DNA of 64,000 nucleotides from Patescibacteria group bacterium (lineage in GTDB: Bacteria > Patescibacteriota > Microgenomatia > UBA1400 > PJMF01), in contig JBDTME010000002.1 in NCBI GenBank assembly GCA_039934415.1, positions 92,746 to 156,745 of the forward strand, read 5' to 3'. A program made the translations under genes and the position numbers. This document shows positions 286 through 62,147 of the stretch, in pieces (within the stretch, counting starts at the first letter, position 1; each line of letters starts with the position of its first letter). The notes beneath the pieces were generated by a model. The model did not search any database. It was not told the origin of the DNA and worked only from the letters and a program-made list of their open reading frames with translations.

Positions 286-289
286 TATT

Positions 290-676
290 TTATAATTTAC
301 AAGGTGTAGTCGATAAAGGATTTAAGGCGTTAATTGCTGTTCCTGGTGCCAACAGATCGAGTCCAAGTGCTCCTCCGATGACTGCCATGATGCCATAAGA
401 GATGATGACAATAATCAGACCGATCGCTCCGTTGGTCATTTGTTTTTTGGCTGTTTCTACTTTACCTTCATCTCCTCCAGCCAGCGTCCACTGCAGCGCT
501 CCAAATAAAAAGTACAACAAAAAAGCCAAACCTGCTAAGACTGTTAAAAACCCCAATATTAAAGAAATAATGCCTTCTAATGAGTTACACGCTCCGGTGA
601 TTGTGGGATCGAACACGCCAGTACCAGCACCTTGGAACTGACCAATCGAAACGTCTTGTGTTGCAGCAATTAACAT
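290..676 (-). CDS. T4SS pilin-like protein (VirB2/TrbC-type, two hydrophobic helices around an AGGDEGK loop)
   Basis: A 128-aa protein: cleavable-looking N-terminal region, a TM helix, the motif LAGGDEGKVETAKKQMTNG, then a second TM helix. It is one of four tandem paralogs. Confidence 0.55.
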   Translation of the reverse strand: MLIAATQDVSIGQFQGAGTGVFDPTITGACNSLEGIISLILGFLTVLAGLAFLLYFLFGALQWTLAGGDEGKVETAKKQMTNGAIGLIIVIISYGIMAVIGGALGLDLLAPGTAINALNPLSTTPCKL

Positions 677-680
677 AAAT

Positions 681-1055
681 TTATGGGGCGATACCCGTAA
701 TTTTAGGATTCAAAATGAAAGTTGGATCGCCAAAGATAACAAAGCTGGCGACGGCAGTAATCGTAAATGAGCTCACGATAATCACTAATCCAATTAGACT
801 CATGTAAATACTTTGCCAGGCGGTTTCGACAGCTTTCACATCATTCGAAGCAGTGATGTACTTAAAACCAGCCATGATGAGGTTGAAAAGTGACCAAATA
901 CCGGCGATGACAGTAATTAACTTAATGATGTTGGATGCAAAAACGACAATACCGATTTGACCAGCAGCCAGACCTGTTTGATAAGACGCAACACCTGGAG
1001 GAGCTTGAATTGTCCCCCACAGTGAGTCTGCAATTAAGGTACTGAGTAAGAACAT
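681..1055 (-). CDS. T4SS pilin-like protein paralog
   Basis: A 124-aa, two-helix small membrane protein of the same size and topology as its neighbours, arranged in tandem with them. Confidence 0.45.
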   Translation of the reverse strand: MFLLSTLIADSLWGTIQAPPGVASYQTGLAAGQIGIVVFASNIIKLITVIAGIWSLFNLIMAGFKYITASNDVKAVETAWQSIYMSLIGLVIIVSSFTITAVASFVIFGDPTFILNPKITGIAP

Positions 1056-1073
1056 ATGTTTCTTGCGACCAAT

Positions 1074-1394
1074 TTATAAAATCTTCAATCCGGTTAACAA
1101 CTCGACGACTTGAATGATCCAGTACGCACTGAACATCACTACAAACCCAATCAACGCTGATGTAATCTTTTTTTGTCCCTCTTCCACACTCTTTGTTGAT
1201 TCTGAGGAAATTATACTCAATCCACCTGCAATCATCAAGAAAAGAAATATTACCCCTGCTAACAAGAAAATATTAGGCACAATCAGATTAATCAGGGAAC
1301 CCAAATCCTTATACTGTTCACCAACTGACTGAGTGTCGTTGATCTTAATTGCAGTCCCAAGGTCAATAGAGGCTAACAGATTTGACATACTCAC
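1074..1394 (-). CDS. T4SS pilin-like protein paralog
   Basis: A 106-aa protein with IAGGLSIISSESTKSVEEGQKKITSALIGFVVMF between two hydrophobic segments, the same architecture as 290..676. Confidence 0.5.
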   Translation of the reverse strand: MSMSNLLASIDLGTAIKINDTQSVGEQYKDLGSLINLIVPNIFLLAGVIFLFLMIAGGLSIISSESTKSVEEGQKKITSALIGFVVMFSAYWIIQVVELLTGLKIL

Positions 1395-37729: not shown

Positions 37730-38885
37730 CTACTTTACCTATTGGTGGTGTTCCGGCTTGATTGAGAGTCTGGTCAATGACACTTTGTGGGTCAGGCATC
37801 GTTGACGAATTCACTGCGGACGTCATTGGTGTTTCAGGTGGTGTTGAGACGGTTGGCGACTCGCTTACAGAGCTACCTGGCATCGCGGCTGGCGTAGTCG
37901 CACTTGGAACAGCAGGGACTTCAGGGGTGCTCATGGGAGCAGGTGAAGTAGATGCCATTTGAGGTGGTGTTGCAAAACCAAGATCTGTTTTCGTAAAATC
38001 TGGCATTTCTGGTGTGGTGCTCATGGGCGTTGGAGCAGCTGGAGTCGCTGGCGCAGCCGTGAATGCTGGTGTTTCGGTCATGGTTGGAGTAGGAACGCTA
38101 GGAGCTGGAGCTGGTTGCATCGTTGGATTTGGTTGTGCTGCCGGAGTTGGTTGAAGACTTGTTGGCATGGTTGGGGTGTCAATCATAAAATCTCCTTGGA
38201 TTTTTGCCTGGACGAGAGGCGTAGTATAATTTGCTGTATCCGTTACTTTTTGACCTTCAAACGACTCAGGGTTGTATGAAGAGTATAGCATCTGGATCAG
38301 TTCTTGAGTGGTAAGTTGTCTGGAATACAAACCAATTCTGGCTAGTTGGTCGATAAGGTGATCGCGACGTGGTATCAGATTCGTTTTGGCTTTTTCAATG
38401 ATGTAATTCTTTTCAAAACTCGACAGCGACTTACTTTTGGCACCAGGAATGACACTCTGTGTGGTGAGACCCATCTCAACTGCTGACAGTGGGATGATGA
38501 TGTAAAACTTCTTATCCAGAACGTTTTGATCTTGAACGAGTGACTCCACAAAAGAATGGTACTCTTTTATTTTTTGTCTATAGATTTGGTTTGTCGCCGT
38601 GTCTTCTAAATCTTGAATTTTTTTGAGATAGGCTGTCACGTCTTTTGGTTGAGAACGGATGACGATCTGGATCGGATAACTCAATGAGTTAAGCAAAGCA
38701 GCATAAGCGTAAATCGTCGCGTCTTGTTCACCTTCCGAGAGAAGACCGAAGTTCATCGCAGAGACCGTAATGACGAGTGATGCTGCTCCATCGCCAAGAA
38801 TAATCAGATCATTGGTAATGTCGTACAGATCCAGGAAGAGCTGAGTGGTGGAATTGCTGACGGTATCAGTTTTTTGCTTTGCCAT
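37689..38885 (-). CDS. hypothetical T4SS-associated protein with a Pro/Thr/Ala-rich C-terminal half
   Basis: Its stop overlaps the VirB4 start by 41 nt (translational coupling). The ~240-aa N-terminal globular part is followed by a low-complexity PTPAAQP-type region. Confidence 0.4.
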   Translation of the reverse strand: MAKQKTDTVSNSTTQLFLDLYDITNDLIILGDGAASLVITVSAMNFGLLSEGEQDATIYAYAALLNSLSYPIQIVIRSQPKDVTAYLKKIQDLEDTATNQIYRQKIKEYHSFVESLVQDQNVLDKKFYIIIPLSAVEMGLTTQSVIPGAKSKSLSSFEKNYIIEKAKTNLIPRRDHLIDQLARIGLYSRQLTTQELIQMLYSSYNPESFEGQKVTDTANYTTPLVQAKIQGDFMIDTPTMPTSLQPTPAAQPNPTMQPAPAPSVPTPTMTETPAFTAAPATPAAPTPMSTTPEMPDFTKTDLGFATPPQMASTSPAPMSTPEVPAVPSATTPAAMPGSSVSESPTVSTPPETPMTSAVNSSTMPDPQSVIDQTLNQAGTPPIGKVGEMPSTPQPGMDN

Positions 38886-38922
38886 TGGGGTTTAATCTTT
38901 TAACTTTTAACTTTCAACTTAC

Positions 38923-39990
38923 TTACTCACTTGCTCGTATTTCGATTGGGTCAAGAATAGTGTTATTAAGCTCAAGTTTCTGAGTTGGAAACAGTATACC
39001 TTCTTTCTCTGCTTTCATAAAATACTCACCATTTTTGAGAGGAGTGCTGATGTAAAACTGTCCAATTTTGTTTGTTCTGACTGCGCGAACTGGCATGCCT
39101 TGATCGTCAGCAATTTCAACAATAGCGTTTTCAACGATGTTGCCAACCTGGTCAAACACCATACCGACAACAATGTTGGGTTGTGTTGGTTTCTTGGGAA
39201 AGGGGAGAGTGTCAGATGTTTGAACGTTGAGTGCAGCTGAGTGTTGTGCTGTGGGATCATCAACAACTAGAGAAGCGGCATTAAAAACGTCTACTACTTC
39301 TGAAGTAGTTTCAGGTGCAGGTGCTTCTACCGGAACAGTCACTTCTTCAATACTTGGCGGAAGAGTCTCCGGAATTTGTTCAGCTGTCAATCTTTCGTCT
39401 TCGTAAGGAACATTGGTTTTAAAGAGATTATCAAATTGTTGTAGTGGATGTTGTTGTGCTGTAAGGTCTGGTTTGGTTAGTAGTTCAACGGCATCTACTG
39501 TTTCGACGTGTACAGTGTCGAACAGCGATAGGACCGCACTCATCTGCTGGGCTTCTTGGTATGCCAGTGGATCTAAAGCAGACTCATCTGGAAGAGTGTG
39601 AATATACTCATAAATACGCTGTTGTTTTAAAGGAGATAAATCAAGTTCGTCTTGAAACGTCGTAGTTTCTTTCGTGGTATATGTTAAGTAGTCGGGCAAG
39701 TTACCTGATTTTCTCCAATAAAAGAGTGTTGGTTTATAAATTGCTCGAAATAAAGCGATGAACCATTGGTCGAGTGGACGGCCTTCATAGGGAACGAACG
39801 CGATCATTGCCCCAAGTCCAACGAAAAAAACAATCAGCGGCCACTTGATTACGCTATATAAATTCGTTTGATAAATCACCACTCCTAACAAAATTCCCGC
39901 ACCCAACTCCAAAAACTGCTTGAGCGTCATGTTCCCAATCAGGTGAAATTCGTAGCTAGTGACAGCTTGTGGTATCGGATGATCTTGCAT
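38923..39990 (-). CDS. hypothetical membrane protein: a PrgI/VirB3-like 2-TM N-terminus and a C-terminal carboxypeptidase-regulatory-like beta domain
   Basis: The two N-terminal hydrophobic helices occupy the position and size of VirB3/PrgI upstream of VirB4. The C-terminus carries the motif NKIGQFYISTPLKNGEYFMKAEKEG. Confidence 0.35.
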   Translation of the reverse strand: MQDHPIPQAVTSYEFHLIGNMTLKQFLELGAGILLGVVIYQTNLYSVIKWPLIVFFVGLGAMIAFVPYEGRPLDQWFIALFRAIYKPTLFYWRKSGNLPDYLTYTTKETTTFQDELDLSPLKQQRIYEYIHTLPDESALDPLAYQEAQQMSAVLSLFDTVHVETVDAVELLTKPDLTAQQHPLQQFDNLFKTNVPYEDERLTAEQIPETLPPSIEEVTVPVEAPAPETTSEVVDVFNAASLVVDDPTAQHSAALNVQTSDTLPFPKKPTQPNIVVGMVFDQVGNIVENAIVEIADDQGMPVRAVRTNKIGQFYISTPLKNGEYFMKAEKEGILFPTQKLELNNTILDPIEIRASE

Positions 39991-40078
39991 AAGAGTTGTA
40001 AGTTATAAGAGGTAAGTTGTAAGGAATAAGTTGTAAGAGAGTTATCTTTTCACTTATAACTTTAACTTAACCCTTCCC

Positions 40079-41137
40079 TCATTCTACCTTAACGGCTGGT
40101 GAGATAGCTTCGACGTTAAAGATGCTATTGTTTTTGTCTTTTCCAACGCCGTAAAAATGGATGTATGGCAGAATGTATCCATTCTGTTCGTTTTGTCTGT
40201 ACTCCAAGGTGGCCGAGCTAAACTCAACATTGGAGAGGTTCTCGGCATTTGGTTCAATAGCATCAAAGTTTCCTGCGTGAATATAGGTGATGAGACCGGC
40301 AAGCATCCTATCCTCGACTCCACCAAGCCCCAGAGAGTTTACGATTTGTACTTGTTCAAAACTGCTTGGAACAGGATAAAAGCTGATTTCTAAAATACTT
40401 GCATTTTTGTCAACTCTAATGATCGCTGGAGATTGAACCTTATCACTGGAAATGAATGGAATATTGTCTACTAAAGTGTTGAGTGTAATTTTGTACGCAT
40501 TTGTTGAAGCCTCGTCTTTTGCTGGTTCAGTACTTTCTGGATTTACGCTTTGAGGTTCTGGTTCTGAAAGTGTGTAGTTTTGGAACAACTGGTGTTCGTC
40601 GATAAACGACCGAATTTTTTTTGCTATTTCCTCATGAGTTACGGTTGCCGTTTTGGGTAAAGTATCATCTAAAATGCTGAGCAGAATGTCTTTCTTATAC
40701 GCAATGAGTGTCGCGTTGCCACTCGTTGTCAACTGATATTCTTGGTTGGCATCTTGCCAAGCGTTGCTTGTCCCAGGTACTGGAGTAAGCGGAAGTTGCT
40801 TAGCGAGTTTTTGTATGGTTGTTTCAATTGTTTCTGGTTGCAAGGCTTGATAAACAGCCAGCTTGCTAGGCATGCTCATTGTCAAGTTCTTATCGAAAGT
40901 GATTTGTGCTTTATATGTTTTTTCTGTAGTGACCACGGTTTCCGCTGGAGGAGGTGTTGGTGTCAGTGCCTGCAAAATAGCCGAAATAACAACAGCCAAA
41001 CCCATTATTACAATAAACACTCTCAACCATTTCTTCTGAAATAGTTTTGTGATGAATGATGGAAGTTGCAATCGATTATTTTCCATAATATTCGTCACAT
41101 CTTGGTCCTTCAGGTACTTTGCCAGCAGTGCTGACAC
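40079..41137 (-). CDS. hypothetical membrane-anchored protein (T4SS locus)
   Basis: 352 aa with one N-terminal TM helix. Its start overlaps the end of the preceding gene (41076..41137). Confidence 0.35.
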   Translation of the reverse strand: MSALLAKYLKDQDVTNIMENNRLQLPSFITKLFQKKWLRVFIVIMGLAVVISAILQALTPTPPPAETVVTTEKTYKAQITFDKNLTMSMPSKLAVYQALQPETIETTIQKLAKQLPLTPVPGTSNAWQDANQEYQLTTSGNATLIAYKKDILLSILDDTLPKTATVTHEEIAKKIRSFIDEHQLFQNYTLSEPEPQSVNPESTEPAKDEASTNAYKITLNTLVDNIPFISSDKVQSPAIIRVDKNASILEISFYPVPSSFEQVQIVNSLGLGGVEDRMLAGLITYIHAGNFDAIEPNAENLSNVEFSSATLEYRQNEQNGYILPYIHFYGVGKDKNNSIFNVEAISPAVKVE

Positions 41138-44100
41138 CTAATGTTTGAATTAAGGCATAGTCACTCAAACCTCTAATCTCATAGTGTAAGTGATTTCCAT
41201 CAGATGCTCCACCAGGACCATGCGTACTATCAACATGACCTACTAATTGTCCACCCTCAACCGTTTCGCCCACGTGGACGACGATTCCACCATCAATCTG
41301 ATGGGCGTAATAAGAAAGCCAACCACCGTGATCAATGACTAACAGATTGCCAAACGCATTATTGTCACGTTTAGTGGTGACAACTGTAACAACGCCTGGT
41401 GCAGCGGCGTAGATAGGAGTGTTTAATGGAGCCGCAATGTCGTAGGCGTCAGGACGAACTTTGAATCCGCCACAATGACTCCAACTTGGATGTGTAATAC
41501 ATTGTTGAGTTAAAACTGGGTGACTTATGGGACCAGTACCATATGGAAGTTGAGTCACCCTCCCTTTTACAGGCCAACAAGGAGGAACGGTTGTTGTCGG
41601 ACAATCTCCAAAACAGGTCTGTGCCCGACTGGTACTGCTGTCAGCTTGACCAGCTGCGGTGATGTTTGCCTTAATATCATTTTTGACCAAAGAATCACTA
41701 AAACGAGAGTCTGATGCATCGACGGTGAATTGAAGATGAATCGGCTGATCTGCTGTGAGTGGTTGGCCTGCCAAAGCAGCGAGTTGGTCAGTGAGTTCCT
41801 GAGGGAGAGCTGGCGGATCAATCACGTTCGAATCTTTATCAATTGCACTCATAGTATCTGTGAGTCCCGTAATGACGATCTCTTCCGTTGCCTCAGGTTT
41901 TTTGGAGAGGTCAATTGTGTATGTGATCGGACCTTGCGCATTAGAGTTGCTGGGTTGGGCAGTTTTTTTCAAAGTGATGTATCGCGATTCGTCAGCATCT
42001 AGCGAAAAGTATGGTGCGACTTGAGTGACGCTGGCATCGGGGAGGAAAGCGCTTAGGATCATGGATGTGGTGAAGATGTTTGCGATGACAATAGTTACTA
42101 GTGGGATGCCAACGGCAGCAGCTATAGTAGCCGTAGAGCCTGTGATACCTTGTGCAGTCAGTGTCTGTGCAGCTCCTTCTAAGAAGCCTGTAGTTTGACC
42201 CGCTGCAGTTGAAACTGCCGGTCTGGCAAAGTTGCTTAGTGCAGCTTTAGTACTTGATGGAAGAGCGCTCGCATAACTAGATGTACTTCCGGCATCAGAG
42301 GCGCCTTTCATAAATCCTGCTATGCCGCCCGCGATTGCTCCAACACTTGCCCCGATGGCTGTTCCAACCACTGGAAAAAAAGAGCCAATGATTCCACCGG
42401 CCACGGCACCACCAGCCACACCACCAAGTGTTGTGCCTGCCACACCCTGCACCATGTTTGTGATGATTCCGTAAATGGCTGCACCAGTTCCGGCAGCACC
42501 ACCAACGACAAGCACACCTTTTTTAAGCTGTGATGAGCCAATTTTTGTAGCCGTCCCCTGAAGACTAGCGGCATTGAGATTTCCTATGCCCTTGGCTCTG
42601 CCTAACCAGTCTCTTAAATTACTTAATCCTTGAACATTTCCTACCTGTGGAGCGTTCCAAGATTGATGTGGGACTGCTGTGTCATATAAAGCCTTATTGA
42701 AAGCCGCACGACCTTGATTGTCGAGCTGAGTTTGTCCTGCCGGAAGAAATTGCTGGCGATCAACCCCCAACATATTGCTGTAAAAGACTTGTTCTTGTTC
42801 ATCAAGATTGTTAATTTGTGCCTGTAACTGGTTGAGATACTGATTGCGAACGTAGAGCGCCTCAGCTCTCAGAAATTTTTCTTGTTCTGAAGCTTCTGCT
42901 GGAGTAATTGCCAAATCTCGAGTGAAAAAAGCATGAGCCAGAACTTTATCTGTATTGGCTTTATATTTGGGGGAATACGTTTTGATCAATTCTCGATATT
43001 GCTCCGTGGAAAGAGAGAGGGGTGTTGTCTCTCCGGGCTCAAGGCTATGAGTAAGTAAATTATTTTGGGTGTAGTTTGCCAACGCATGTTTTCGTTGCGC
43101 GACGTACGACTCCATGATCTGTAAAACCTCTTGATTGTTTCTGAGACTAGGATCGAGCTCGTTGAGCATGACCTTAAGATTGTCAGAGAGGAGATGAGGA
43201 CTACCGAGTGATAACGCGTAAGAATCAAGAGTATTGAGAATATTTATTTCAGCGGAGCCATCTTTATTATAAGTTCGTAATAAAGAGACGAGCGCTTCTT
43301 TGGGATTGTCTTTGCTGAAGCGTTGAAACTTGGCAAAGTTTTCGAAGTTGGCTTGAGTTACTGTTTTGCCATTTGTCTGCAATTGTTTGAGATAGACATC
43401 TATTTGTCCGAGCAGTTTTTTGCGTTCATCTGCTCCGAGAGAAAAAATGTTTTCTGGAAAGATCTGACGGAGTTCAAGAGGATCTAAGGCAGAGATTCCA
43501 GTCCCTTTCGTTCTTGGAGCTCGTCTCAAAATTTCATCGCCGAGGTTTTCGATTGACTCTGCAGAAACCATTGCTTCAAAAGTCGCAATTTGCTTGAGTT
43601 GCTTTTTAAACTCTTGTTTGGCGAGTTCTGAGTAATCTTGTGGAGCATCTTCTGAGTCGATTTTTTCTGAAAAGAGTTGGGTGGCATCCTCGGCAGTTTT
43701 AAGTGATCCTTTGAAACTCGTGTCGTTAAAAGCCTTGAGTTCAAACTTCTCTTTTAAAATTTCAGTTTTTAAGAGAAAGTACTCGTTGTTGCATAAGCGC
43801 TTATAAATTTGATCAACGTGTGAAAGCAGTTGTTGTCGGATCGTAATTCTGTCGGTGATTGATAGCCGGCCAGATTCAGCAAGTAGCAATGCGAATTGAG
43901 GGTTTTCTTGAAGATAGAGAGAAATGACTCCTGCAATATCCTCTTGGAGCGAGAATAATTGAAAGTCGAGTTGTCTTTGTTCATCGGCTGGTAGTTTGTT
44001 GTAAAACGTTCGCCAATCAGCGACATCTAGAGCCGAGTTCAACACTTCATTCATCAGGGCGCCAGAGTCTCTCCAACCTTCTTGAGCGGCGATTTTTTGA

Positions 44101-44771
44101 ACTTCAAATGGTGAGGGAGGTGTTTGTTCGTCCGTGCGGGGTACATTCTGAGCGTCATTTTCTGCTGGAGTTTGTTCTGTCTGAGATTTCCTGAAAGCGC
44201 CACCGCCGACATAACTCCCATCGACTTCTTTCTCAGATTTGTCTTTGGTTTTTTCTTCGTTTGCTTGAGCTTCGTCTGGAGCTGCTTCCCCAGATATTTT
44301 TCGTGCGATTAAATCCTCACTGATACTCCTCAATAGTTGGAGAGCGTTGTTTTCTTTGAGCAAGTACCGTCGGACATATTCATCGCGATTGAGTATGTCA
44401 CTTTCTGATTTCTCGTCATTGGGAAGGAAAAACAAGGGCATTTTTTCAAATACTTTTGGATTCTTCCGGTTAACTTCAGTGAAGATGAGATTTAAAAAAT
44501 AGCGAACTTGGTTTTTATCCTCCGCTGCTTCGGATGCAGTAAAGATTGAGTTGAATCGGGTAGGAATAGTTTGGTTGACCTTGCTACTCACTAGTTCATC
44601 TAAAGTGTCGACGATTTCATCTAGAAAATCAGGGAACTCTGGAAGTGCCAGTACTGTTTCTAGGGAGAGCGGGTCGAAATCAACTTTGTGTTTTTCTAGC
44701 TCGTCGATATACGTGGATAGCGCACTAGAATTCAGAAGCGTCGATGGTTGTTCAAATACCGTAGTTGCCAT
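41076..44771 (-). CDS. large T4SS-associated protein with a glycine-zipper TM region and a C-terminal M23 peptidase domain
   Basis: The C-terminal M23 (LytM) motifs are HGGWLSYYAH, H.VGETVEGGQLVGHVDSTHGPGGASDGNHLHYEIR. The central Gly/Ala-rich segment is GVLVVGGAAGTGAAIYGII...GGIAGF. 1,231 aa. Confidence 0.7.
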   Translation of the reverse strand: MATTVFEQPSTLLNSSALSTYIDELEKHKVDFDPLSLETVLALPEFPDFLDEIVDTLDELVSSKVNQTIPTRFNSIFTASEAAEDKNQVRYFLNLIFTEVNRKNPKVFEKMPLFFLPNDEKSESDILNRDEYVRRYLLKENNALQLLRSISEDLIARKISGEAAPDEAQANEEKTKDKSEKEVDGSYVGGGAFRKSQTEQTPAENDAQNVPRTDEQTPPSPFEVQKIAAQEGWRDSGALMNEVLNSALDVADWRTFYNKLPADEQRQLDFQLFSLQEDIAGVISLYLQENPQFALLLAESGRLSITDRITIRQQLLSHVDQIYKRLCNNEYFLLKTEILKEKFELKAFNDTSFKGSLKTAEDATQLFSEKIDSEDAPQDYSELAKQEFKKQLKQIATFEAMVSAESIENLGDEILRRAPRTKGTGISALDPLELRQIFPENIFSLGADERKKLLGQIDVYLKQLQTNGKTVTQANFENFAKFQRFSKDNPKEALVSLLRTYNKDGSAEINILNTLDSYALSLGSPHLLSDNLKVMLNELDPSLRNNQEVLQIMESYVAQRKHALANYTQNNLLTHSLEPGETTPLSLSTEQYRELIKTYSPKYKANTDKVLAHAFFTRDLAITPAEASEQEKFLRAEALYVRNQYLNQLQAQINNLDEQEQVFYSNMLGVDRQQFLPAGQTQLDNQGRAAFNKALYDTAVPHQSWNAPQVGNVQGLSNLRDWLGRAKGIGNLNAASLQGTATKIGSSQLKKGVLVVGGAAGTGAAIYGIITNMVQGVAGTTLGGVAGGAVAGGIIGSFFPVVGTAIGASVGAIAGGIAGFMKGASDAGSTSSYASALPSSTKAALSNFARPAVSTAAGQTTGFLEGAAQTLTAQGITGSTATIAAAVGIPLVTIVIANIFTTSMILSAFLPDASVTQVAPYFSLDADESRYITLKKTAQPSNSNAQGPITYTIDLSKKPEATEEIVITGLTDTMSAIDKDSNVIDPPALPQELTDQLAALAGQPLTADQPIHLQFTVDASDSRFSDSLVKNDIKANITAAGQADSSTSRAQTCFGDCPTTTVPPCWPVKGRVTQLPYGTGPISHPVLTQQCITHPSWSHCGGFKVRPDAYDIAAPLNTPIYAAAPGVVTVVTTKRDNNAFGNLLVIDHGGWLSYYAHQIDGGIVVHVGETVEGGQLVGHVDSTHGPGGASDGNHLHYEIRGLSDYALIQTLGVSTAGKVPEGPRCDEYYGK

Positions 44772-45134: not shown

Positions 45135-45136
45135 AT

Positions 45137-47380: not shown

Positions 47381-49138
47381 TTATTTTCGTTCGATACCGT
47401 AGAGGTTGCTTTTCAAAGAGATGCGACCGGGAGCTCGTAGATTAAAAATTTCTTTAAATTCACTACTACTCATTCGAAGTTCGCCACGATTAGTTTGGAA
47501 CACAACTGAAGATGTCGTGCCAGCAGAGGAGTGTTCCACTTTGACTGAAGAGATGGAACTGTATGCACCACCTTTGCTATCTGCTCTCGACTTCATCTCA
47601 TCAATGCTCCATGAATCGCTTCCCCAACATGGTCCGAGTGGTCCAACTTTATCGGCGTCGCCTCCACCAGCTTTACGGACAACCCAAGCATTTAAGATAT
47701 CTGCCATCTCATTTTCGCGTAACCAAGGTGAATCTTTACCACAAGTATCACCCCCGCGAGTGGTGTACCACGCTTTGTAAAACCAAGGACTACCACCTTT
47801 TTTCTCATATGCTCCATCAGTCCAGTTTGACCAGTCTGAAGTGGAGTCCCAAAGACCAGGAACACTATGGCCAACCGAAGTATATCCAAGCAAATGTCCG
47901 CCAGCCGTACTAGCATACATGGTACTAAATACGTCGCCTGTGGCTTTACTGACGAGCACTTTTCCTTTGGTGGCATTAACTGCATCGTGCCACGCGCCAC
48001 CGGCTTGGAACTTGCTGGATTTATAGACCTGACACGCTTCGGTGACACAAATTGAGCCTTTGAGTGACTGGTTTCCCATGCGCCACCCCAAGTACGAGAG
48101 AGCATAGGTACGAGCGGCGATGGCTTGGGCTTTGAGCGCTTCAGAGTTCCAACTCCCTGGCATTTCTGCGATGCCTTTTAGGTACTGATTTTCAAATGGC
48201 ATAGTGCCGACAGAAGTGGCAACGGTGTCTGGCATCGACACATCTTTTATTTCGACGTCACCGTAATATGCTTTGAGAATTTGTTCGTAACTTTGGCCGG
48301 ACTCGGCTCTTCCTTTGGCTCCGTATTGACTCATACCTTTAAAATGTGGCGCGCCAAAACTAAACACCGCAAACGCAGGTGAAAATCCTGGATTGTAACT
48401 CGGAAGCGATTTTGGATCACCGCCCTCTGGAACCTCTCCGACTGAAGTTGTGGCGGTCCCGGCTTTGCTGGCGATAATTTGTTGCTGTTGTGCTGTTAGA
48501 CTTGCGATTTTGCCAGAAACTTCTGATTGATAGGTTTTGGCTTTAGAAATTTCCACATCAAAAAACTTTTTCTGCTCATTGAGAGTGATCTGGAGGGCGG
48601 CCAGTTTTTTTTGGTCATCCTCGAGTTTCTTTTTGTCGGTTTGTAGGTTGATGATGTCTTGAGCTGTGGATTGAATAATGCTTTTGTCTTGATCTTGAGC
48701 AGAGGCTTTATATGCCAAGTCTCGTGTGATGTTTTGTAAATCACCTTGTGCAAAAAAAATCATAAATGGCGATGGCGATTTACTTCGTTTGTAGCGTTCT
48801 GAGACTCGATAGGAGAAAAGAGCAATTGTGTCGGCGAGGTCATCTTCTCGCTGTGTGATATTGACAGCCAGTTTTCCGGCGTTTTTTTTGGCCGAATCGA
48901 TACCGGATTGGGCGTTTTTGACGCGTTGGGACAGAGAAGTGGCTTGTTGCTCCAAAGGTTTCGTCGCATCCTCAGACTGCTTTTTCATTTTTTCCAACTC
49001 ATTGATCTGATTTTGCAACTCTTCGACTGGGTCGATGGCGCGAGTCGCGGTTGGGAGGAGGGAGCAAGAAGTAAGGAGGATACCAATGACGAGAAGGCGA
49101 AAAAAGTGTGGTGGTCGAAAATGGTTTGAAGTGGGCAT
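47381..49138 (-). CDS. SpoIID/LytB domain protein with an N-terminal signal/TM and a long coiled coil
   Basis: The SpoIID core AQAIAARTYALSYL...CVTEACQVY. The N-terminal ~250 aa is coiled-coil. Confidence 0.7.
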   Translation of the reverse strand: MPTSNHFRPPHFFRLLVIGILLTSCSLLPTATRAIDPVEELQNQINELEKMKKQSEDATKPLEQQATSLSQRVKNAQSGIDSAKKNAGKLAVNITQREDDLADTIALFSYRVSERYKRSKSPSPFMIFFAQGDLQNITRDLAYKASAQDQDKSIIQSTAQDIINLQTDKKKLEDDQKKLAALQITLNEQKKFFDVEISKAKTYQSEVSGKIASLTAQQQQIIASKAGTATTSVGEVPEGGDPKSLPSYNPGFSPAFAVFSFGAPHFKGMSQYGAKGRAESGQSYEQILKAYYGDVEIKDVSMPDTVATSVGTMPFENQYLKGIAEMPGSWNSEALKAQAIAARTYALSYLGWRMGNQSLKGSICVTEACQVYKSSKFQAGGAWHDAVNATKGKVLVSKATGDVFSTMYASTAGGHLLGYTSVGHSVPGLWDSTSDWSNWTDGAYEKKGGSPWFYKAWYTTRGGDTCGKDSPWLRENEMADILNAWVVRKAGGGDADKVGPLGPCWGSDSWSIDEMKSRADSKGGAYSSISSVKVEHSSAGTTSSVVFQTNRGELRMSSSEFKEIFNLRAPGRISLKSNLYGIERK

Positions 49139-50001: not shown

Positions 50002-50166
50002 CCTTTCTGATTGAGTTATAGGTCTTTTTATGGTAAAATGGCGGGGTATTTTTCGATGGGCGAGTCAGGTTTAACTGACGAGCCATAAGAAAAGTACACG
50101 CACTTTAACGAAGTTGCAGGCCTGGCCCGTCATCTCCGGGTATCAGGTCTAGAAAGGGAATTTGAG

Positions 50167-50982: not shown

Positions 50983-51190
50983 TTTGTCCCTCTTCGGTTT
51001 TCGGATCGAAGAGGGATGTTTTTAAAAAAATAAGAATTATTTATTAACAAACCAAAAAAAGTCAGCTTTCTAACGTAACAGTCAGAGAATTAGCGCATTT
51101 ATAGAAATAGAACAAGAACGAAGTAGAGAAAAGCAGTACAGCTTATAACTTTAAAAACACTGAAAATACTCTAGAAATACCAGGCGTAAT

Positions 51191-51988
51191 ATGTTAAAAT
51201 CACGACCTTCTATGAAGAAAATGCTGAAAAGTGTTCTAGCGTTTTTGTTTTTGATTTCATTTTTTGTGCGTTTTTTCTCACCTGTTTCAGCTGAAGTAGT
51301 CGCACCAACGTGTTCGGCTATCTCTGTTCCGATAACTTTAACGGCCTCAGATGCCAATATCAATATTACCTTCAATCCATCACTTGGTTTACAAGATGAC
51401 GGGAGATATCGTTTCAACTACGAAGATGCTTCTGTGGATCATAATGTAACCGAGTACTTCGGTCGAGAAGACGATCGTTCAAATTGGAGTGTAGATTTTT
51501 CCTTTAACACTGTCATTGCCGCACCTCAGACGTTGGCACTACAAAATCTCGATGGACAACAGTTTTGTCTCGTTACTTTTCGATATGACCAAGCATCAAA
51601 CACTGTATTAGTGACCAAACCAGGTCAGGGGCAAACTCCAGAATCATTTAATCTGTGTCAACAAGCTGGTACCAATCACGGAACTTGTGATGCATGTTTA
51701 GCTAATGGCGAAATATGGACGGGTGTAGGATGCATTCCTTTCAAAACTGGCGTTGCAACCGTACGAGCAATTATTGTATTAGGACTCGGGATTACTGGTA
51801 CCGCGGTAGTACTAATGACACTCTATGCCGGGTTTATGTTTAGCACCTCGCAAGGTGATCCTAAACGAGTCGACGAAGCCAAAAGCGCTGTGACCTCAGC
51901 GATCATCGGCGCCTTTTTCATCATTTTCTCCGTCACCATCCTCCAATTCATTGGAGTAAGCATCTTGCACCTGCCAGCTTTCGGGTAA
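51191..51988 (+). CDS. secreted protein with a C-terminal T4SS pilin-like domain (candidate minor pilin/adhesin)
   Basis: A signal peptide, a ~150-aa domain, then GVGCIPFKTGVATVRAIIVLGLGITGTAVVLMTLYAGFMFSTSQGDPKRVDEAKSAVTSAIIGAFFIIF (helix - charged loop - helix), which resembles the small pilins at 290..1394. Confidence 0.5.
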   Translation: MLKSRPSMKKMLKSVLAFLFLISFFVRFFSPVSAEVVAPTCSAISVPITLTASDANINITFNPSLGLQDDGRYRFNYEDASVDHNVTEYFGREDDRSNWSVDFSFNTVIAAPQTLALQNLDGQQFCLVTFRYDQASNTVLVTKPGQGQTPESFNLCQQAGTNHGTCDACLANGEIWTGVGCIPFKTGVATVRAIIVLGLGITGTAVVLMTLYAGFMFSTSQGDPKRVDEAKSAVTSAIIGAFFIIFSVTILQFIGVSILHLPAFG

Positions 51989-52043
51989 ACAGCACCTTAA
52001 CTTGGCCTTCAAATTTTTTTGTTTCCAATGATATGATGAAGAA

Positions 52044-53285
52044 GTGAAAAAAATTCTTCTCACTTTTTTGTTCGCTTTCCTCTTTTTGGCTACAAACGTC
52101 AAAGTAGTTTTTGCAGATAATGACACTTTAGGGGTTTACTGTGATGTTACTGTGAATGGTGTGGCGTTGTCGTCAACTCAAGATTCTGCGCCGACAATCT
52201 ACGCGAGTAGAAAAGATGGAGCAAATTACGTCTACCCTTTTAAAGTGTGTGGAAATTTAGCGCTTTTGAATAATCTTCCTACTGGTGTCAAACCTGTGAT
52301 CGACATGACACCGTATCACTTCGACTTTACTGCTTTTCAACCGTCAGAAAGAATAAACCTGACTCAAGATGGTAGTTGTTTAGTTGGTGAATACTCCAAA
52401 AACCTTGCACCAAATGGGAAGACCGTCGACTCCGTTTATGATGTTGAAGGTGATAATTCTGGGAATACGCCTATTTGTCATCGAGTGTTCGCTAGGCTAG
52501 CACCAAGTGTGTTAGCGGATACCGCTGCTTGGGCGAACGCTAGTACGATGTGCGGGACAATCGGCCTGGACCCTGTTGCACCAATCCACAATGACAACGT
52601 GACTATTGATTTTGTTCTCCCTGAACCATTTTGGACAAATGCGATTAACTCCCCAGAAGGAATCTCATACAGTGGTTTACATTATAAATTGATTCGTTCT
52701 GCTGATGGCGCTGAGCTACAAAATGGAGAAGTTTCTGGCATTATAAATGGAGGACTGGCAGATCCTCATATCTTTGAACATGTTGACCACATGGATGCCG
52801 GTAACTATCGAGTAAAATTCGTCTTAGAAGGGAGTAATGGTAATTTAGATATTTGCGAAAGAAGTTTCGACGTTGGTACTCAGAATGATCCAGGGAAACT
52901 GAATGATAGCGTAGGTTCAGTTGACGAATTTAAGTTGTGTAATCAAGCAGGTCCGCCAGGTTCCGACTCTTACACGGCATGTAACAAATGTTTTTATAAC
53001 AATAGCGGTATTTGGACTGGAGTGGGGTGTATTCCTTATACGAACACTGCCTTGATGGTTAGAGCTCTTATCGTTTTAGGATTGGGCATTGCAGGCACTG
53101 CGGTAGTACTGATGACACTAGCTGGGGCATTTTTGATGTCCACCTCTAGGGGAGAACCTCAAAGAGTTGAAGAAGCGAAGAGTTTGATTACATCTGCCGT
53201 TGCTGGAATATTTTTCATCATTTTTTCTGTAAGTATTTTACAATTTATCGGTGTGAGTATTCTGCATATCCCTGGGTTCGGATAG
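52044..53285 (+). CDS. secreted protein with a C-terminal T4SS pilin-like domain, paralog of 51191..51988 with a larger N-terminal domain
   Basis: The C-terminal ~110 aa is nearly identical in pattern (IWTGVGCIPYTNTALMVRALIVLGLGIAGTAVVLMTL...RVEEAKSLITSAV...). The ~300-aa N-terminal domain is different. Confidence 0.5.
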   Translation: MKKILLTFLFAFLFLATNVKVVFADNDTLGVYCDVTVNGVALSSTQDSAPTIYASRKDGANYVYPFKVCGNLALLNNLPTGVKPVIDMTPYHFDFTAFQPSERINLTQDGSCLVGEYSKNLAPNGKTVDSVYDVEGDNSGNTPICHRVFARLAPSVLADTAAWANASTMCGTIGLDPVAPIHNDNVTIDFVLPEPFWTNAINSPEGISYSGLHYKLIRSADGAELQNGEVSGIINGGLADPHIFEHVDHMDAGNYRVKFVLEGSNGNLDICERSFDVGTQNDPGKLNDSVGSVDEFKLCNQAGPPGSDSYTACNKCFYNNSGIWTGVGCIPYTNTALMVRALIVLGLGIAGTAVVLMTLAGAFLMSTSRGEPQRVEEAKSLITSAVAGIFFIIFSVSILQFIGVSILHIPGFG

Positions 53286-53299
53286 GGTATAATATCTTT

Positions 53300-54136
53300 A
53301 TGATCAAGCTAAAGTTTTTTGTCCTTCTGCTTTTTTTCGTAAGTTTTTTTGTTGTGACCTCTCCAGCTCATGCTCAACAATGTATGACTGATGGTAGTGT
53401 TCCTTGTGCTGCTGGATTTGTTTGTGATTGTACTGGCGAGCCTGGATGTGGCCAAGATGCGACACGTGGTGAGTGTAAGCCAGTGCCGAAACCAAATGGT
53501 TCACTGTGCGGAGCTAATACTGAGTGTACGAGTGGGTATTGTAATATTGTATGTACCGTACCACCTTCATCCCTGCCTAGCTGTATTCCTGGATCAGCTT
53601 TTGACAACAAAATAGACCCTCGGATGAGTAGTTGTTTGGAAGGAACTGTTATTCGCTATCAATGTGGAACAGGCTATCAACTGGACATAAGTACAAAAAT
53701 CTGTAATGCACTCCCGACGACTAACTCACCCGCCCCAGCACCATCGGACAGTACTGTGCCGACTCCTCCAGATTCTTCAAGCGGAATAGCCAACGGGCTT
53801 TTTTTGTTTTTAGTAAATCCCTTAACTGTCACTGGAAATAAGAATCCACTGGCAGGAATCATTCAAGGTTTTACGAATGTCACCCAAACCTTCACCACTC
53901 CGGCTGGTTTTCTCAATGCCTTGATGCCTTTCCTTTTTTCGATTGCTGGCATAATATTGTTCGTGATGATCATTTGGGGTGGTTTTGAGATGATCTATGG
54001 GGCAGCCGATACCAAGGCTCAAGAGGCTGGTAAACAACGTATTACCGCCGCTCTAATCGGCTTTACCCTTCTGTTCATCTCTTACTGGATCGCGCAGATT
54101 TTGCAGGCGATCTTTGGGGTGAATATTTTAGGGTGA
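53300..54136 (+). CDS. Cys-rich secreted protein with a C-terminal T4SS pilin-like domain
   Basis: An N-terminal Cys-rich module (CMTDGSVPCAAGFVCDCTGEPGCGQ...). The C-terminus FLFSIAGIILFVMIIWGGFEMIYGAADTKAQEAGKQRITAALIGFTLLFISYW matches the pilin architecture. Confidence 0.5.
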   Translation: MIKLKFFVLLLFFVSFFVVTSPAHAQQCMTDGSVPCAAGFVCDCTGEPGCGQDATRGECKPVPKPNGSLCGANTECTSGYCNIVCTVPPSSLPSCIPGSAFDNKIDPRMSSCLEGTVIRYQCGTGYQLDISTKICNALPTTNSPAPAPSDSTVPTPPDSSSGIANGLFLFLVNPLTVTGNKNPLAGIIQGFTNVTQTFTTPAGFLNALMPFLFSIAGIILFVMIIWGGFEMIYGAADTKAQEAGKQRITAALIGFTLLFISYWIAQILQAIFGVNILG

Positions 54137-54194: not shown

Positions 54195-57100
54195 TTGAGA
54201 AATATGGTAAAATCTGGGTCAAATATGAACGAAAGAAGAGTCGAGGTACCAGTCGATCCAGAAAAGCGTTTCGTTAAAGAAACGTTTGGTATGATTTTTG
54301 CTGATCTGCCTATCAAGGCGGATTTTAAACGCAGGATTATCTCAGCTCTGCGTGTACTTGATGAAGCTATTTTGGATGTTAACGGTCAACCTTTAGATCT
54401 TAGTCCCATTAAAATAAAAGTACAAAAAGATAATATTGAACTGTTGTACGTAATGATTTCCTCATTGCGTACCTCTCCCGAACTGTTAGAAAGTCCCGAC
54501 GCCATAGATAGCTTTGAAGATCAATTGAAAGTTGTGGGAGAACAAGTTGGCAGTATCTTGGATACTTACGAGAACATCCTAGCTGATATTGAAAATCCAC
54601 TTCCAGTCGTCGCAGTAGAAACCCCTCCATTGAGTGATAAAGAAGTCGTTGATCAATTTATTGCAAGTGAACCTTCAATCGCTTCGGAGTATCAACAAAT
54701 ACTCAATATCACACCTAATTTCCCAGATTTGACAATTCGAGACAAGTACCCGTTTGCTGGAGATGATGACGAAGGTCGAGACCGAGCAGGCCTAATCATC
54801 CAAGCAGATAAATTGAGGATCACCTTGCTGACTAGAGCTGTCGAAAATGCACTCGAGCGTCGATATGTGGGTAAATCCGAATCAGAAGCCCGAGAAAAAA
54901 TCATTATTCAACAAAAGCTATTACGACCTTTAGATGAGTTGTCAGATAAACTGCAAGGACAAATTTTGAAGGAGTTCTTAGAGTCATATGACAGAGCTGA
55001 ACTAGGGGAATTATTATATGGGGAGGAGGACGGGTTACTTGATGAGCCACCTTTCACCACCTTACTTGCAGATATTGATGAAGTGGGGGATAAGGTATCC
55101 AAGGAACCTGTGGGATATTCTGGATTAACCAGTTTGGGAACATTAAAGCAAAGAATAGAGGCTAATTTTAAGGCAGCAGAAGTCCAGGCACAAGGTCGTT
55201 TACTCGCTTTAATTCCAGGCAAATTTCATGAAGAATTTCAGCGTACCTGGTCAACTCAGTATGCATTGAAGACAGCTCAATCTTTGAGAGCATTAGAGAA
55301 GCTATTTTATACAACTTTCGAAAAAACAGCTAATGATATTGGTCAGGAAGCTGATGGAATAATTCAGAACTATCAATCTTTGGCAACTCCAGATTTGCCT
55401 ACTTTATATACAGAGCAGAAGAAACTTTCCGACAAAAAAACAGAATTAGACAAATTGTTATACGTCAAGTTTTTTAGTGCTACCGAGAACAAAACCACTA
55501 CTGACATCGAAGACAAGGTAAAAGCAAAAATAAGCGAAATAGATAAGATAGAAGAAGAAATAGAGACTAAGCAGCTCGACCTGTGGAAACAAGATGTTTT
55601 ACCAGGTGAAATCCATCTCCTAGAGTTAAATGCCGCTGATACAGACGCAAAAACAGCTCTAGCTGGTACTGATAAGACGGTGATTGCAGCCGCGAAAGAA
55701 AGATTAGAAAAAGCCAGAAAAGAAGCGTTTGCGTTGGTACCAACGAAAGTCCTTGTCGACACGCAGGAAGTTCTTATCAAAGGTGCTTCCCACTACCTGA
55801 ATCAGCTCGTTGCAGCATCAGACCAGACAGTATTGGCTGCTGCTGAGAGATTGTCCACTCTGGACGAGGTTGAGCGTGAGGAAATGAAAACTAGTTTGTC
55901 TGGCCTCATAGAAAAGATCAACAAGCTCGACCTAGAGGATGAAACGCATACACTTGATTCACTGAAAAAAGAATATGCCGATGAGTTTAAAGATCTTGAA
56001 GATCGATTTGATAAAGGCGGCATTCCACCTGCATCAGTAAGTTCCAGATACGCAGAAGCCAAGAAAAAGCTTGGCATCATGGTAGAGTCGGCAACTATTC
56101 GTGGATATCCATTTTCTAAGGTTGTGAGTATTGCGAGCGAGAAAAACTATGACGTGTTTGTTGATACAAAGTCTACTCGAACAATCGCTGATCCTTATGA
56201 AAAGGCAATTGTGAAGAGAGTTCAGGCCTTATACTACACAGAAACTGCAAAGTTTGGAGTAAAGAACGCTGATGGCAGTATTGATGAAAATGATCCAGAA
56301 ACTGAAAAGCTACGAATTGAGCACCGAAGGCAAAAAGTCCGGATGTTTGCGTACCGTTACCGCGATGACAACTATCCTAAGACCGGTGTCCCAGCTGCAA
56401 AGCAGGAGAACTTATATAGCCTTTTTGGTCCTAGAAGACTTTCACGAAAAGACATCTTAGAGGGTGTCACCAATCATGAAATTTATGGTCAGCATACTCA
56501 AGATTTGCTTAGATATGTTATCGATGTCGTCGGGGAAGATATTCCTACAAGATCACCTAAACCAGCTGAAATGAATCCAGACGGAACAGTGAAAGAGAGA
56601 GCAAGGTTTTATACGGCAAGAGAGCTAGAAATTTGCTACGATGATCTTGCAAAAAATCCAGACGGACCTCTGAAGTTAGAGAATCATTTAAAAGAAATTT
56701 TTGTCGCTAGTGGTTTGTTGCCACTAGAACATTTTGAGATTGTCTGGAACCTATATATCACTTTCGATCTGGCTTCTATTTCTTTAGCGAAGCTCCAGAA
56801 AAGAACCAAAACACGAAGCCATAACCCCACTAAGCCTGTGGACACTGAGTACTTGTCCTATCCATTCCATGTCATGAGTCACAAACGAAACAGATATGGT
56901 AATTTGGACTCCGCACATCAGCATTTGTTGGAATTTACAGGTGATTACCCGAATGACGAAGAGAAAGACCAATTTGGTAATTTAGTGTACCGAGATGATA
57001 GCGGAAACGTTGTGCCAGCTGGAACTCGGGATTCTACAACTTATCTGTGGGCTGGAAATCAGAGTAAAAGGCATGGAACACACGTGCGGACGGTGAGAAC

Positions 57101-57941
57101 TACTCAAAGACTTGTCAGATTATGGACTAATGCATATTTTCCGACTAAAGGCATAGAAGGCAGGATTTACACTGATAAAAATCGACAAAAATTAAACCCA
57201 AAAACAGGAAAACAAGAGGATAACGACAATTATGAGGGCAATTGGAACAAGCCGATTTTCCCAGATCATTTCCAGTTTTTAACAGAATCTGAAGACAGAA
57301 TTGGAAATATTGATCTCTACACAACGGCGCAAAAGGGGTGGGATAAAATGCTCAAGATGACTGTTGGCCCGATAAGTGCCGGTCTGAAAATGCACGACAT
57401 CTTTGGAGCTGAGCATGGGTTATACACTGAATTTTTGAATAATGGTATCGGTTTAGCTAAGGTTGTTGCTGGCCCACACCACAACTGGTTTGTGCCAATG
57501 TTGAGATATCTTATTGGAAGAATAGGCGTTGGTTTTTATTCTGAGGCTGTGAACCACCGAGAAGAGTTGCGAAAGGAGTTGGTTGAACAGCTCAAGATTG
57601 GTACTGGAGTGCCTCGTGGTGCAGTCGGATTTGATGAGTTATTGGCCGAGCTAGAGGGGAAAGATGCAACTCAATTTGCGGGAAGTAGATGGAATAAAAT
57701 GCCTGATATCCTTAGACCGTTTGATCAAGGTAGAAGAAGAGATGAGCGCGTGGCTTACATGAGAGCATGGTATAAGGACAAGACTGACAAGGAGCCACCA
57801 TCTTTGTTGCAGCGAGTAAATCCTGGTAAAGATGAGTACATCAAGACCTATTATGATGCAATTGATGAAGTCATACCATTGCCTGTAATTATTGATCGTG
57901 CATCTGCCAGTACAGATACTGCAGAAAAGAAAGCAGCCTAA
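54195..57941 (+). CDS. large hypothetical cytoplasmic protein (1,248 aa) in the T4SS neighbourhood
   Basis: No signal peptide, TM helix or NTP-binding motif. The N-terminal half is acidic coiled coil and the C-terminal half is globular. A TTGTCG-17-TAAAAT promoter-like element lies upstream. Confidence 0.45.
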   Translation: MRNMVKSGSNMNERRVEVPVDPEKRFVKETFGMIFADLPIKADFKRRIISALRVLDEAILDVNGQPLDLSPIKIKVQKDNIELLYVMISSLRTSPELLESPDAIDSFEDQLKVVGEQVGSILDTYENILADIENPLPVVAVETPPLSDKEVVDQFIASEPSIASEYQQILNITPNFPDLTIRDKYPFAGDDDEGRDRAGLIIQADKLRITLLTRAVENALERRYVGKSESEAREKIIIQQKLLRPLDELSDKLQGQILKEFLESYDRAELGELLYGEEDGLLDEPPFTTLLADIDEVGDKVSKEPVGYSGLTSLGTLKQRIEANFKAAEVQAQGRLLALIPGKFHEEFQRTWSTQYALKTAQSLRALEKLFYTTFEKTANDIGQEADGIIQNYQSLATPDLPTLYTEQKKLSDKKTELDKLLYVKFFSATENKTTTDIEDKVKAKISEIDKIEEEIETKQLDLWKQDVLPGEIHLLELNAADTDAKTALAGTDKTVIAAAKERLEKARKEAFALVPTKVLVDTQEVLIKGASHYLNQLVAASDQTVLAAAERLSTLDEVEREEMKTSLSGLIEKINKLDLEDETHTLDSLKKEYADEFKDLEDRFDKGGIPPASVSSRYAEAKKKLGIMVESATIRGYPFSKVVSIASEKNYDVFVDTKSTRTIADPYEKAIVKRVQALYYTETAKFGVKNADGSIDENDPETEKLRIEHRRQKVRMFAYRYRDDNYPKTGVPAAKQENLYSLFGPRRLSRKDILEGVTNHEIYGQHTQDLLRYVIDVVGEDIPTRSPKPAEMNPDGTVKERARFYTARELEICYDDLAKNPDGPLKLENHLKEIFVASGLLPLEHFEIVWNLYITFDLASISLAKLQKRTKTRSHNPTKPVDTEYLSYPFHVMSHKRNRYGNLDSAHQHLLEFTGDYPNDEEKDQFGNLVYRDDSGNVVPAGTRDSTTYLWAGNQSKRHGTHVRTVRTTQRLVRLWTNAYFPTKGIEGRIYTDKNRQKLNPKTGKQEDNDNYEGNWNKPIFPDHFQFLTESEDRIGNIDLYTTAQKGWDKMLKMTVGPISAGLKMHDIFGAEHGLYTEFLNNGIGLAKVVAGPHHNWFVPMLRYLIGRIGVGFYSEAVNHREELRKELVEQLKIGTGVPRGAVGFDELLAELEGKDATQFAGSRWNKMPDILRPFDQGRRRDERVAYMRAWYKDKTDKEPPSLLQRVNPGKDEYIKTYYDAIDEVIPLPVIIDRASASTDTAEKKAA

Positions 57942-62146: not shown

Positions 62147-62147
62147 C

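Follow-up and report, generated by a model that had tools for sequence, protein, structure and literature searches.

Three closely spaced genes, here named A, B and C, occupy positions 51191-54136 on the + strand of the window, that is, the whole 64,000-nucleotide stretch of an ultrasmall Patescibacteria group bacterium analysed in this study (assembly GCA_039934415.1, contig JBDTME010000002.1). Their products end in a secretion-system pilin module that is preceded by an additional N-terminal domain. Gene A (51191..51988, 265 amino acids (aa)) consists of a signal peptide (aa 1-34, 51191-51292), an N-domain (aa 35-150, 51293-51640), a Cys-neck (aa 151-185, 51641-51745) and a hairpin of two transmembrane (TM) helices (aa 186-265, 51746-51985). 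Gene B (52044..53285, 413 aa) follows the same plan, with a signal peptide (aa 1-24, 52044-52115), two immunoglobulin (Ig)/FN3-like sandwiches within aa 25-293 (52116-52922), a Cys-neck (aa 294-334, 52923-53045) and a TM hairpin (aa 335-413, 53046-53282). We refer to A and B as neck-class modular pilins. Gene C (53300..54136, 278 aa) belongs to a second class and carries an inserted domain; its parts are a signal peptide (aa 1-25, 53300-53374), a Cys-rich domain (aa 26-137, 53375-53710), a Pro/Ser/Thr linker (aa 138-165, 53711-53794) and the pilin core (aa 166-278, 53795-54133). The gaps between the genes are 55 bp (A-B) and 14 bp (B-C). NCBI names both B and C 'pilin' and A 'hypothetical protein'.

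A preliminary description of this region had proposed three secreted proteins with distinct N-terminal modules of 150 to 300 aa. The open reading frames (ORFs) exist, and each starts with a Sec signal peptide and an AXA-type site, as read from the sequence (VSA before E in A, VFA before D in B and AHA before Q in C). The N-domains are indeed unrelated among the three proteins; their sizes were corrected to ~115 aa in A and ~270 aa in B, while the module of C measures ~110 aa and is joined to a Pro-rich linker of ~30 aa. Since the Sec signal peptides are cleavable, the N-terminal domains are translocated to the outside of the membrane. The predicted topology has the N-domain outside, TM1 running from outside to inside, a ~14-aa charged loop in the cytoplasm, TM2 running from inside to outside and a short C-terminus outside. 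A cytoplasmic location of the N-domains, which the preliminary description had named as evidence against its proposal, is thus not predicted, and the conserved Cys pairs in the N-domains agree with an outside location. C contains 14 Cys, all within residues 28-135, B contains 10 and A contains 6; judging from the sequences, the conserved Cys of the translocated domains can form disulfides.

The last ~65 aa of A, B and C matched the Pfam family T4SS_pilin (PF18895) with 26.3 bits (aa 193-254), 22.1 bits and 32.0 bits, respectively. The gathering score of this family is 26.6 bits, which places C above and A and B just below it; a precomputed PF18895 match is on record for many close relatives of A and B. 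The same family is represented at the other end of the window by an array of small pilins on the - strand (1..1394). Four small pilins had been placed at 290-1394. Three complete ORFs are found there (290-676, 681-1055 and 1074-1394, encoding 128, 124 and 106 aa), all matching PF18895, and the fourth is a partial - strand ORF at 1-289 that is truncated by the window edge. Pilins of the window (e.g. 290-676) also matched NCBIfam NF045849, the 'Mbov_0395 family pilin-like conjugal transfer protein' of integrative and conjugative elements of Mycoplasma, below its threshold (best E=2.5e-6). These sub-threshold matches suggest that VirB2-like proteins may not be foreign to monoderm type IV secretion systems (T4SSs).

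A, B, C and the three complete small pilins aligned in register as a TM helix, a charged loop (D/E..AK/GK) and a second TM helix, which bears out the earlier observation that the fusions and the small pilins have a C-terminal module in common. Separate profiles were built for the neck class and the second class, and the proteins of the window were scored across classes. The cross-class scores were 26-38 bits, compared with maxima of <=15.5 bits in 1000 full shuffles and <=18.1 bits in 1000 shuffles that kept the TM, loop and TM blocks. Because the real scores exceed all shuffled ones, the similarity of the hairpins is position-specific and goes beyond hydrophobic composition, the very point on which the preliminary description had been prepared to give way. 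BLASTP of C against B gave E=6e-6 over the hairpin (30% identity), the only part that C shares with A and B. A and B had been described as near-identical at their C-termini; they are tandem paralogues with 62% identity over the last 120 aa, and they are unrelated before that point.

The two classes differ in their conserved motifs. In the neck class, ~35 residues with four invariant Cys precede TM1 (F.LC.Q...C..C...GIWT.VGCIP), and the proteins terminate in IPGFG. The second class, which includes the small pilin at 1074-1394 besides C, is characterized by the motifs VNPL, WGGFEM, GKQRITAA and SYWIAQ. Among 75 neck-class proteins, the neck-plus-hairpin modules, which have invariant Gly, Ser, Phe and Pro positions, were alignable in 100% of the 2775 pairs, with a median identity of 52%, and the N-domains in 9% of the pairs. 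The N-domains fell into 25 BLAST clusters, in which B was grouped with a single relative (L015) and A remained a singleton. To judge from this comparison, the conservation of the hairpin exceeds what simple anchoring would require. A distant relation to conjugative pilins is hinted at by Pfam TrbC (PF04956), which C matched with 16.6 bits (E 0.0096), under the curated threshold of 27.9 bits, and which was matched at E <0.01 by 14 of 41 relatives of C (best 1.2e-5).

No Pfam or NCBIfam family was matched by the N-domains of A and B. An AlphaFold2 model of B (mean pLDDT 76, the N-domains mostly 80-90) showed strands at 34-156 and 174-278 that form two beta-sandwiches (residues ~30-156 and 174-278) linked by a helix, in line with the beta-sandwich folds that had been suggested as a check. 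They are followed by the neck, modelled as a helix (308-318) and a hairpin, and by the long helices 335-367 and 372-406. A Foldseek search with B against PDB returned only tandem Ig/FN3-type proteins (L1CAM FN2-3, KIRs, cytokine receptors and RbmA). Across 14 homologues of B, the Cys at 33, 69, 112, 145, 170, 271, 299, 313, 316 and 329 are invariant, six of them in the N-domain and four in the neck. When the N-domain of B alone was used in an exhaustive HMMER search, 16 cluster representatives were retrieved; about a dozen matched most of the domain, all in proteins of 400-450 aa, and the remaining matches were weak, short and repeat-like, in proteins of 543-3698 aa. The N-domain of A may be read as beta-rich. 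In the model of C, the hairpin (201-233/238-272) was predicted with a pLDDT >90 (210-270) and the 14-Cys domain was poorly modelled. The sole family signal of this domain is a weak resemblance of aa ~115-140 to CBM_14, the chitin-binding peritrophin-A family (17.1 bits, E 0.006), which is shared by the closest homologue, P0092 (20.3 bits); neither reaches the gathering score of 22.1. Foldseek further gave a non-significant 34-column alignment of C to full-length CHIT1 (chitotriosidase; E 1.9). We treat the link to chitin as a lead only, not as a result. In another relative, P0089, a curated fn3 domain (E=2.5e-11) is fused to PF18895.

The history of the fusions can be followed in a syntenic relative, L001, a Logan assembly in which the gene order is the same as in the window from an M23 protein through a SpoIID gene to a 7TM_transglut/ATP-grasp/MATCAP trio. 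Its pilin array encodes proteins of 273, 148, 410 and 146 aa. A is orthologous to the 273-aa pilin and B to the 410-aa pilin, and the A/B duplication therefore predates the split between the window and L001. The tandem duplication with N-terminal diversification that had been proposed is supported. The flanking housekeeping proteins are 74-87% identical between the two, the C-terminal pilin modules of A and B 72-82% (A 82%), and the N-domains 29% (A) and 47% (B), a divergence at which synonymous sites are saturated. The positional counterpart of C is the 146-aa pilin, which aligns over its entire length with residues 145-278 of C at 61% identity. This indicates that C arose from a short pilin by acquiring a Cys-rich domain with a Pro-rich linker, an insert of ~120 aa located between the signal peptide and the pilin core. 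A different Cys-rich insert was found at the same site in L004. The sequence comparison shows that N-terminal modules were gained repeatedly and independently.

To survey the distribution of the neck class, its motif pair was sought in one genome per GTDB species. There were 143 confirmed loci, corresponding to at least 143 species-level genomes, and the informative record titles among these loci were Pacebacteria, Woesebacteria, Microgenomates and 'Patescibacteria group'. This Patescibacteria-specific operon was seen in dozens of ENA third-party contigs from metagenome-assembled genomes titled 'uncultured Pseudomonadales bacterium', and in single 'Methylococcaceae', 'Limisphaerales' and 'TM6' records; these titles look mislabelled or the contigs mis-binned. 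The fusions had been thought unusual, an expectation that did not survive the survey. All of the more than 250 neck-class relatives recovered have 209-694 aa, and none is short. With B as query, 90 matches of 233-694 aa were obtained; with A, there were 252 matches, and the 120 listed among them have 219-442 aa. The 72 complete neck-class genes in species-representative genomes encode 209-474 aa (median 396). The 76 second-class relatives of C cover a continuous range of 152-479 aa, with 35 at <=200 aa and 34 at >230 aa, meaning that about half of them are N-terminally extended.

For 80 fetched loci, ORFs were called and searched with the two module profiles and with the neighbouring proteins of the window. 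Of 53 eligible loci, 50 have a divergent SpoIID gene no more than 3 kb upstream of the neck-class pilin, and this linkage persists where the genes on the far side of SpoIID are different. In 67 of 74 loci the neck-class pilin is immediately followed by a second-class pilin. The gap between them has a median of -1 bp when the longest-ORF start is used, and, to judge from this spacing, the two are probably co-translated. The pair is conserved in at least 76 species-level genomes. The partner pilins have 104-543 aa (37 of 67 have >=200 aa) and often contain repeated 'CCGW' Cys-rich units. Many of those from L006-L080 have 1-5 Cys-rich repeats (C.C...CCGW..G.C), matched by no Pfam family, and then a Pro/Thr linker. 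Two neck-class genes in one locus, as in the window and in L001, are unusual.

The next + strand ORF of >=300 aa belongs to one family of secreted proteins of 670-1275 aa with 14-30 Cys in 25 of the 28 loci where it was identifiable. Members of this family (e.g. L002 11433-14234 and L004 11506-14277) have ~950 aa and no Pfam domain, and they are a candidate third component, perhaps a tip or an adhesin. Beyond this gene there is either a homologue of a 572-aa gene of the window or an array of 5-11 small pilins. No homologue of the secreted family was found in the window, where a 1248-aa protein (54195..57941, +) lies directly 3' of gene C, 58 bp away. This protein has no Pfam or NCBIfam match, neither a signal peptide nor a TM segment, and one Cys. 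Proteins of ~1200 aa without a signal peptide take the slot of the secreted family in the window, L001 and L006, and those of L001 (1191 aa) and L006 (1250 aa) had no detectable similarity to the 1248-aa protein or to each other. L050 and L077 do contain homologues of the 1248-aa protein, on the opposite strand. It was rejected as a conserved operon partner on the grounds that 25 of 28 loci carry the secreted Cys-rich family instead, and it is an uncertain member of the pilin system.

Gene A is marked as the first gene of its own unit by a terminator-like hairpin of 15 pairs with a T-run (50985..51018, +), which closes the upstream gene; the gaps from A to B, from B to C and from C to the gene after it gave no terminator of similar quality. 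The upstream gene is a + strand ORF (50167-50982) that overlaps a long ORF on the other strand (50130-51050, -), in a region with a GC content of 0.48 compared with ~0.42. The + strand ORF encodes a multi-TM protein with an acidic tail, ends at the strong terminator, has a weak counterpart in L001 and is absent from L002 and L004; the terminator and the counterpart suggest that it is probably the real gene of the overlapping pair. Divergent from the pilin operon lies the gene for the 585-aa SpoIID-domain protein (47381..49138, -; Pfam SpoIID 2e-18), which has a coiled coil at its N-terminus. It may play a VirB1-like role in opening the wall. A toxin-antitoxin-like pair (49193-50001, -), made up of a PIN-domain protein and its upstream partner, separates SpoIID from the pilin operon.

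By its gene content, the window appears to be a chromosomal region of Patescibacteria (Candidate Phyla Radiation, CPR) close to the origin. A monoderm-type T4SS cluster, recognized with Pfam and NCBIfam (35792..44771, -), adjoins dnaA (33760-35364) and dnaN (32116-33216). It includes a 645-aa VirB4 ATPase (35792-37729, -), a 398-aa TrsD/VirB4-N-like ORF (37689-38885, -), a 355-aa PrgI/VirB3-like protein (38923-39990, -), an uncharacterised 352-aa protein and a membrane protein of 1231 aa with an M23 peptidase domain at its end. VirB4 is seemingly split in the window, the 398-aa ORF overlapping the start of the ATPase ORF by 41 bp and having a long Pro/Thr/Ala-rich tail. The PrgI/VirB3-like protein has a C-terminal CarboxypepD_reg (Ig-like) domain and is thus a further T4SS membrane component with an added beta-sandwich. 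The cluster lies 6-15 kb upstream of gene A on the opposite strand; its end is 6.4 kb, and VirB4 13.5 kb, from gene A. A second toxin-antitoxin-like pair (44877-45400, -; 85 and 87 aa) follows the M23 gene. On the far side of the pilin operon, the trio of 7TM_transglut, ATPgrasp_ST and MATCAP-like peptidase genes (59821-63131, +), 75-87% identical in L001, is probably a peptide-modification system.

VirB2-, TraA- and TrbC-type pilins measure ~60-120 aa once processed and are not known to carry globular domains. Neither the diderm pilins of this type nor the archaeal Ced/Ted pilins (e.g. PDB 8dfu) gave a sequence match above a curated threshold. The link to solved VirB2 pilins is weak. A closer parallel is offered by the VirB2-like arrays of Patescibacteria, which were described in TM7x as a 'Sec-secreted array' of VirB2-like pilins (PMC7427843). 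A survey counted 441 such arrays with 2-11 genes each and found them to be commonest in Microgenomatia and Saccharimonadia (PMC12102498). Southlakia epibionticum, the only genetically tractable Patescibacterium, requires both its T4SS and its PF18895 pilins for growth on the host; these essential pilins are six small proteins (SEML1_0014-0019) (PMC10633639). There, the PF18895 match covers residues 38-124 of ~125-aa proteins, at most 115-180 (PMC10633639 supplement). A, B and C resemble these arrays in the C-terminal two-helix module, the Sec signal peptide, the tandem divergent paralogues and the monoderm-type T4SS near dnaA. They differ in that the described members are single-domain proteins of ~100-190 aa, whereas A, B and C have 265, 413 and 278 aa with ectodomains of 110-270 aa, and A and B add the four-Cys neck and the IPGFG end. 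The N-terminal domains, the neck class and the SpoIID-linked pair are unmentioned in these three papers (PMC7427843, PMC10633639 and PMC12102498), where the pilins are small proteins, and a search of full-text literature found no paper describing such pilin fusions.

Two further kinds of surface structure were considered for comparison. The nearest analogy in design is provided by modular type IV pilins of Gram-positive bacteria, such as PilB and PilC of Streptococcus sanguinis, in which a polymerisation module is fused to an adhesive domain. The design logic is alike, as the filament itself would carry the binding sites; the fold and machinery are unrelated. A type IV pilin starts with a class III signal peptide and an N-terminal helix and bears its extra module at the C-terminus, whereas A, B and C have a Sec signal, the extra domain at the N-terminus and the hydrophobic pilin module at the C-terminus, with neither a class III signal peptide nor an N-terminal polymerisation helix. 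The Pam pili and PamR, likewise CPR-specific, Sec-exported, Ig/FnIII-like, Cys-paired and present in Microgenomatia, were considered as the identity of A and B for their Ig-like folds and their distribution, and were rejected on architecture. In the preprint description, Pam subunits are joined through donor-strand exchange with an Ig-like C-terminal domain and lack a PF18895 hairpin, PamR has a single C-terminal TM helix, and the operon includes PapD-like chaperones (bioRxiv 10.64898/2026.03.03.709456).

Based on these results, we hypothesize that A, B and C are modular VirB2-like pilins of a Patescibacteria T4SS-like apparatus that carry variable binding domains on it or at its base, a reading that we consider to have about an even chance of being correct. 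On this reading they would be incorporated into a pilus, and they may have the role of tip adhesin or minor pilin that had been suggested for them. The fusions are plausibly adhesive. Several observations weigh against this hypothesis. A and B score just under the PF18895 gathering threshold; the hairpin profile, searched against all PDB sequences, found no VirB2 or TraA and just spurious membrane-protein matches, and Foldseek of the C model against PDB gave nothing with E <1. VirB4 was not found within 10 kb of the operon in any of the 80 related loci. A domain of 12-30 kDa on each subunit could hinder helical packing, so that the proteins, if incorporated, are likelier to be minor subunits. 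No observation of a PF18895 pilus was found in the literature searched, where such a pilus is treated as a possibility. In the same literature, the solved CPR filaments are Pam pili built by donor-strand exchange (bioRxiv 10.64898/2026.03.03.709456), and type IV pili have been implicated genetically and with inhibitors.

In the proposed mechanism, the hairpin would be the assembly module, extracted from the membrane in the manner of VirB2 and packed together with the small pilins. Both termini point outward in conjugative pili, as the structures of the F-pilus and T-pilus show. In that case the surface or tip would present the Ig-like domains of B, the beta-rich domain of A and the Cys-rich, possibly glycan-binding domain of C. 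A passage through the cell wall would be opened by the neighbouring SpoIID-type enzyme. The pair of neck-class and second-class pilins could be a specialised adhesive or priming part that replaces the VirB5 and PrgB adhesins absent from these systems, and the variable ectodomains would set the host or surface specificity. VirB5-type tip proteins and the PrgB adhesin are alike in this proposed role, target-cell contact for a T4SS, with no relation in sequence or fold; no member of these families was detected in the window with Pfam or NCBIfam or, according to a published survey, in Patescibacteria generally, the 3,035 genomes surveyed having yielded no PrgB-like adhesin (PMC12102498). More tentatively, and clearly short of an even chance, SpoIID, the neck-class pilin, the second-class pilin and in most cases the ~950-aa secreted Cys-rich protein could together form a host-recognition tip or priming complex of the essential T4SS pilus, with receptor-binding domains fused directly to VirB2-like subunits, rather than borne by a separate VirB5- or PrgB-type adhesin, and with a rapid turnover of these domains that would set the host to which each episymbiont can attach and from which it can feed.

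As the main alternative, the proteins may be envelope proteins that are anchored in the membrane and never polymerise, which is possible at odds well below even. The hairpin would then anchor or dock the domains in the wall zone, together with SpoIID, at the base of the T4SS channel, or as a PamR-like filament tether. This would agree with the neighbourhood of the operon, to which SpoIID is adjacent in nearly all eligible loci and VirB4 is not, and with the lack of an observed PF18895 pilus in the literature searched. In addition, by our own estimate, ectodomains of 110-270 aa are short and may not reach past the wall and S-layer. RbmA is among the fold matches of B, and PamR, described as RbmA-like and as a proposed filament tether, consists of two FnIII domains and a single C-terminal TM membrane anchor (bioRxiv 10.64898/2026.03.03.709456). 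However, PamR has one TM helix and the proteins studied here a two-TM PF18895 hairpin, and no PapD-like chaperone family was detected beside A, B and C, whose neighbours are pilins, SpoIID and the large protein. The hairpin, with its invariant small and aromatic residues, universal alignability and IPGFG end, is also conserved far beyond the needs of an anchor, and it is homologous to small pilins that lack any ectodomain.

It is very unlikely that the N-terminal domains are long pro-regions removed in maturation to leave an ordinary small pilin. In its favour, the precursors of VirB2, TraA and TrbC have leaders of unusual length and undergo processing, and the segments in front of the neck in B (aa 290-296) and of the core in C (aa 138-165) are predicted to be disordered. 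The N-domains are, however, folded, Cys-paired and kept in >140 species, and the neck Cys motif beside TM1 is invariant. The preliminary description had looked to a signal-peptidase site between N-domain and pilin module; such a site is topologically implausible at that junction, because TM1 crosses the membrane inward and ends in the cytoplasm, and with the N-domains outside after TM1 stops transfer, the geometry is not that of a signal peptidase substrate. That the resemblance to pilins arose by chance from the composition of generic hydrophobic helices, or that the ORFs are not genes, can be practically dismissed despite two of the three Pfam scores lying under the gathering threshold, as the shuffle controls already refute it and hundreds of homologues have the same architecture, with synteny conserved in about 80 genomes.

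A large part of bacterial diversity belongs to the Patescibacteria, whose cultivated members live attached to host cells. What their T4SS apparatus contacts and how the host is recognised are questions for which the survey of 3,035 genomes provided no adhesin (PMC12102498). Pilin modules with fast-evolving Ig-like and Cys-rich ectodomains are concrete candidates for this missing recognition function, and possible uses include recombinant ectodomains in binding assays, the proteins as antigens for localisation and the genes as candidate host-range markers. If A, B and C do enter a filament, they would to our knowledge be the first VirB2-family pilins with globular domains. The combination of a pilin module with fast-changing outer domains is widespread, no description of it was found, and it may decide which host cell the bacterium sticks to.

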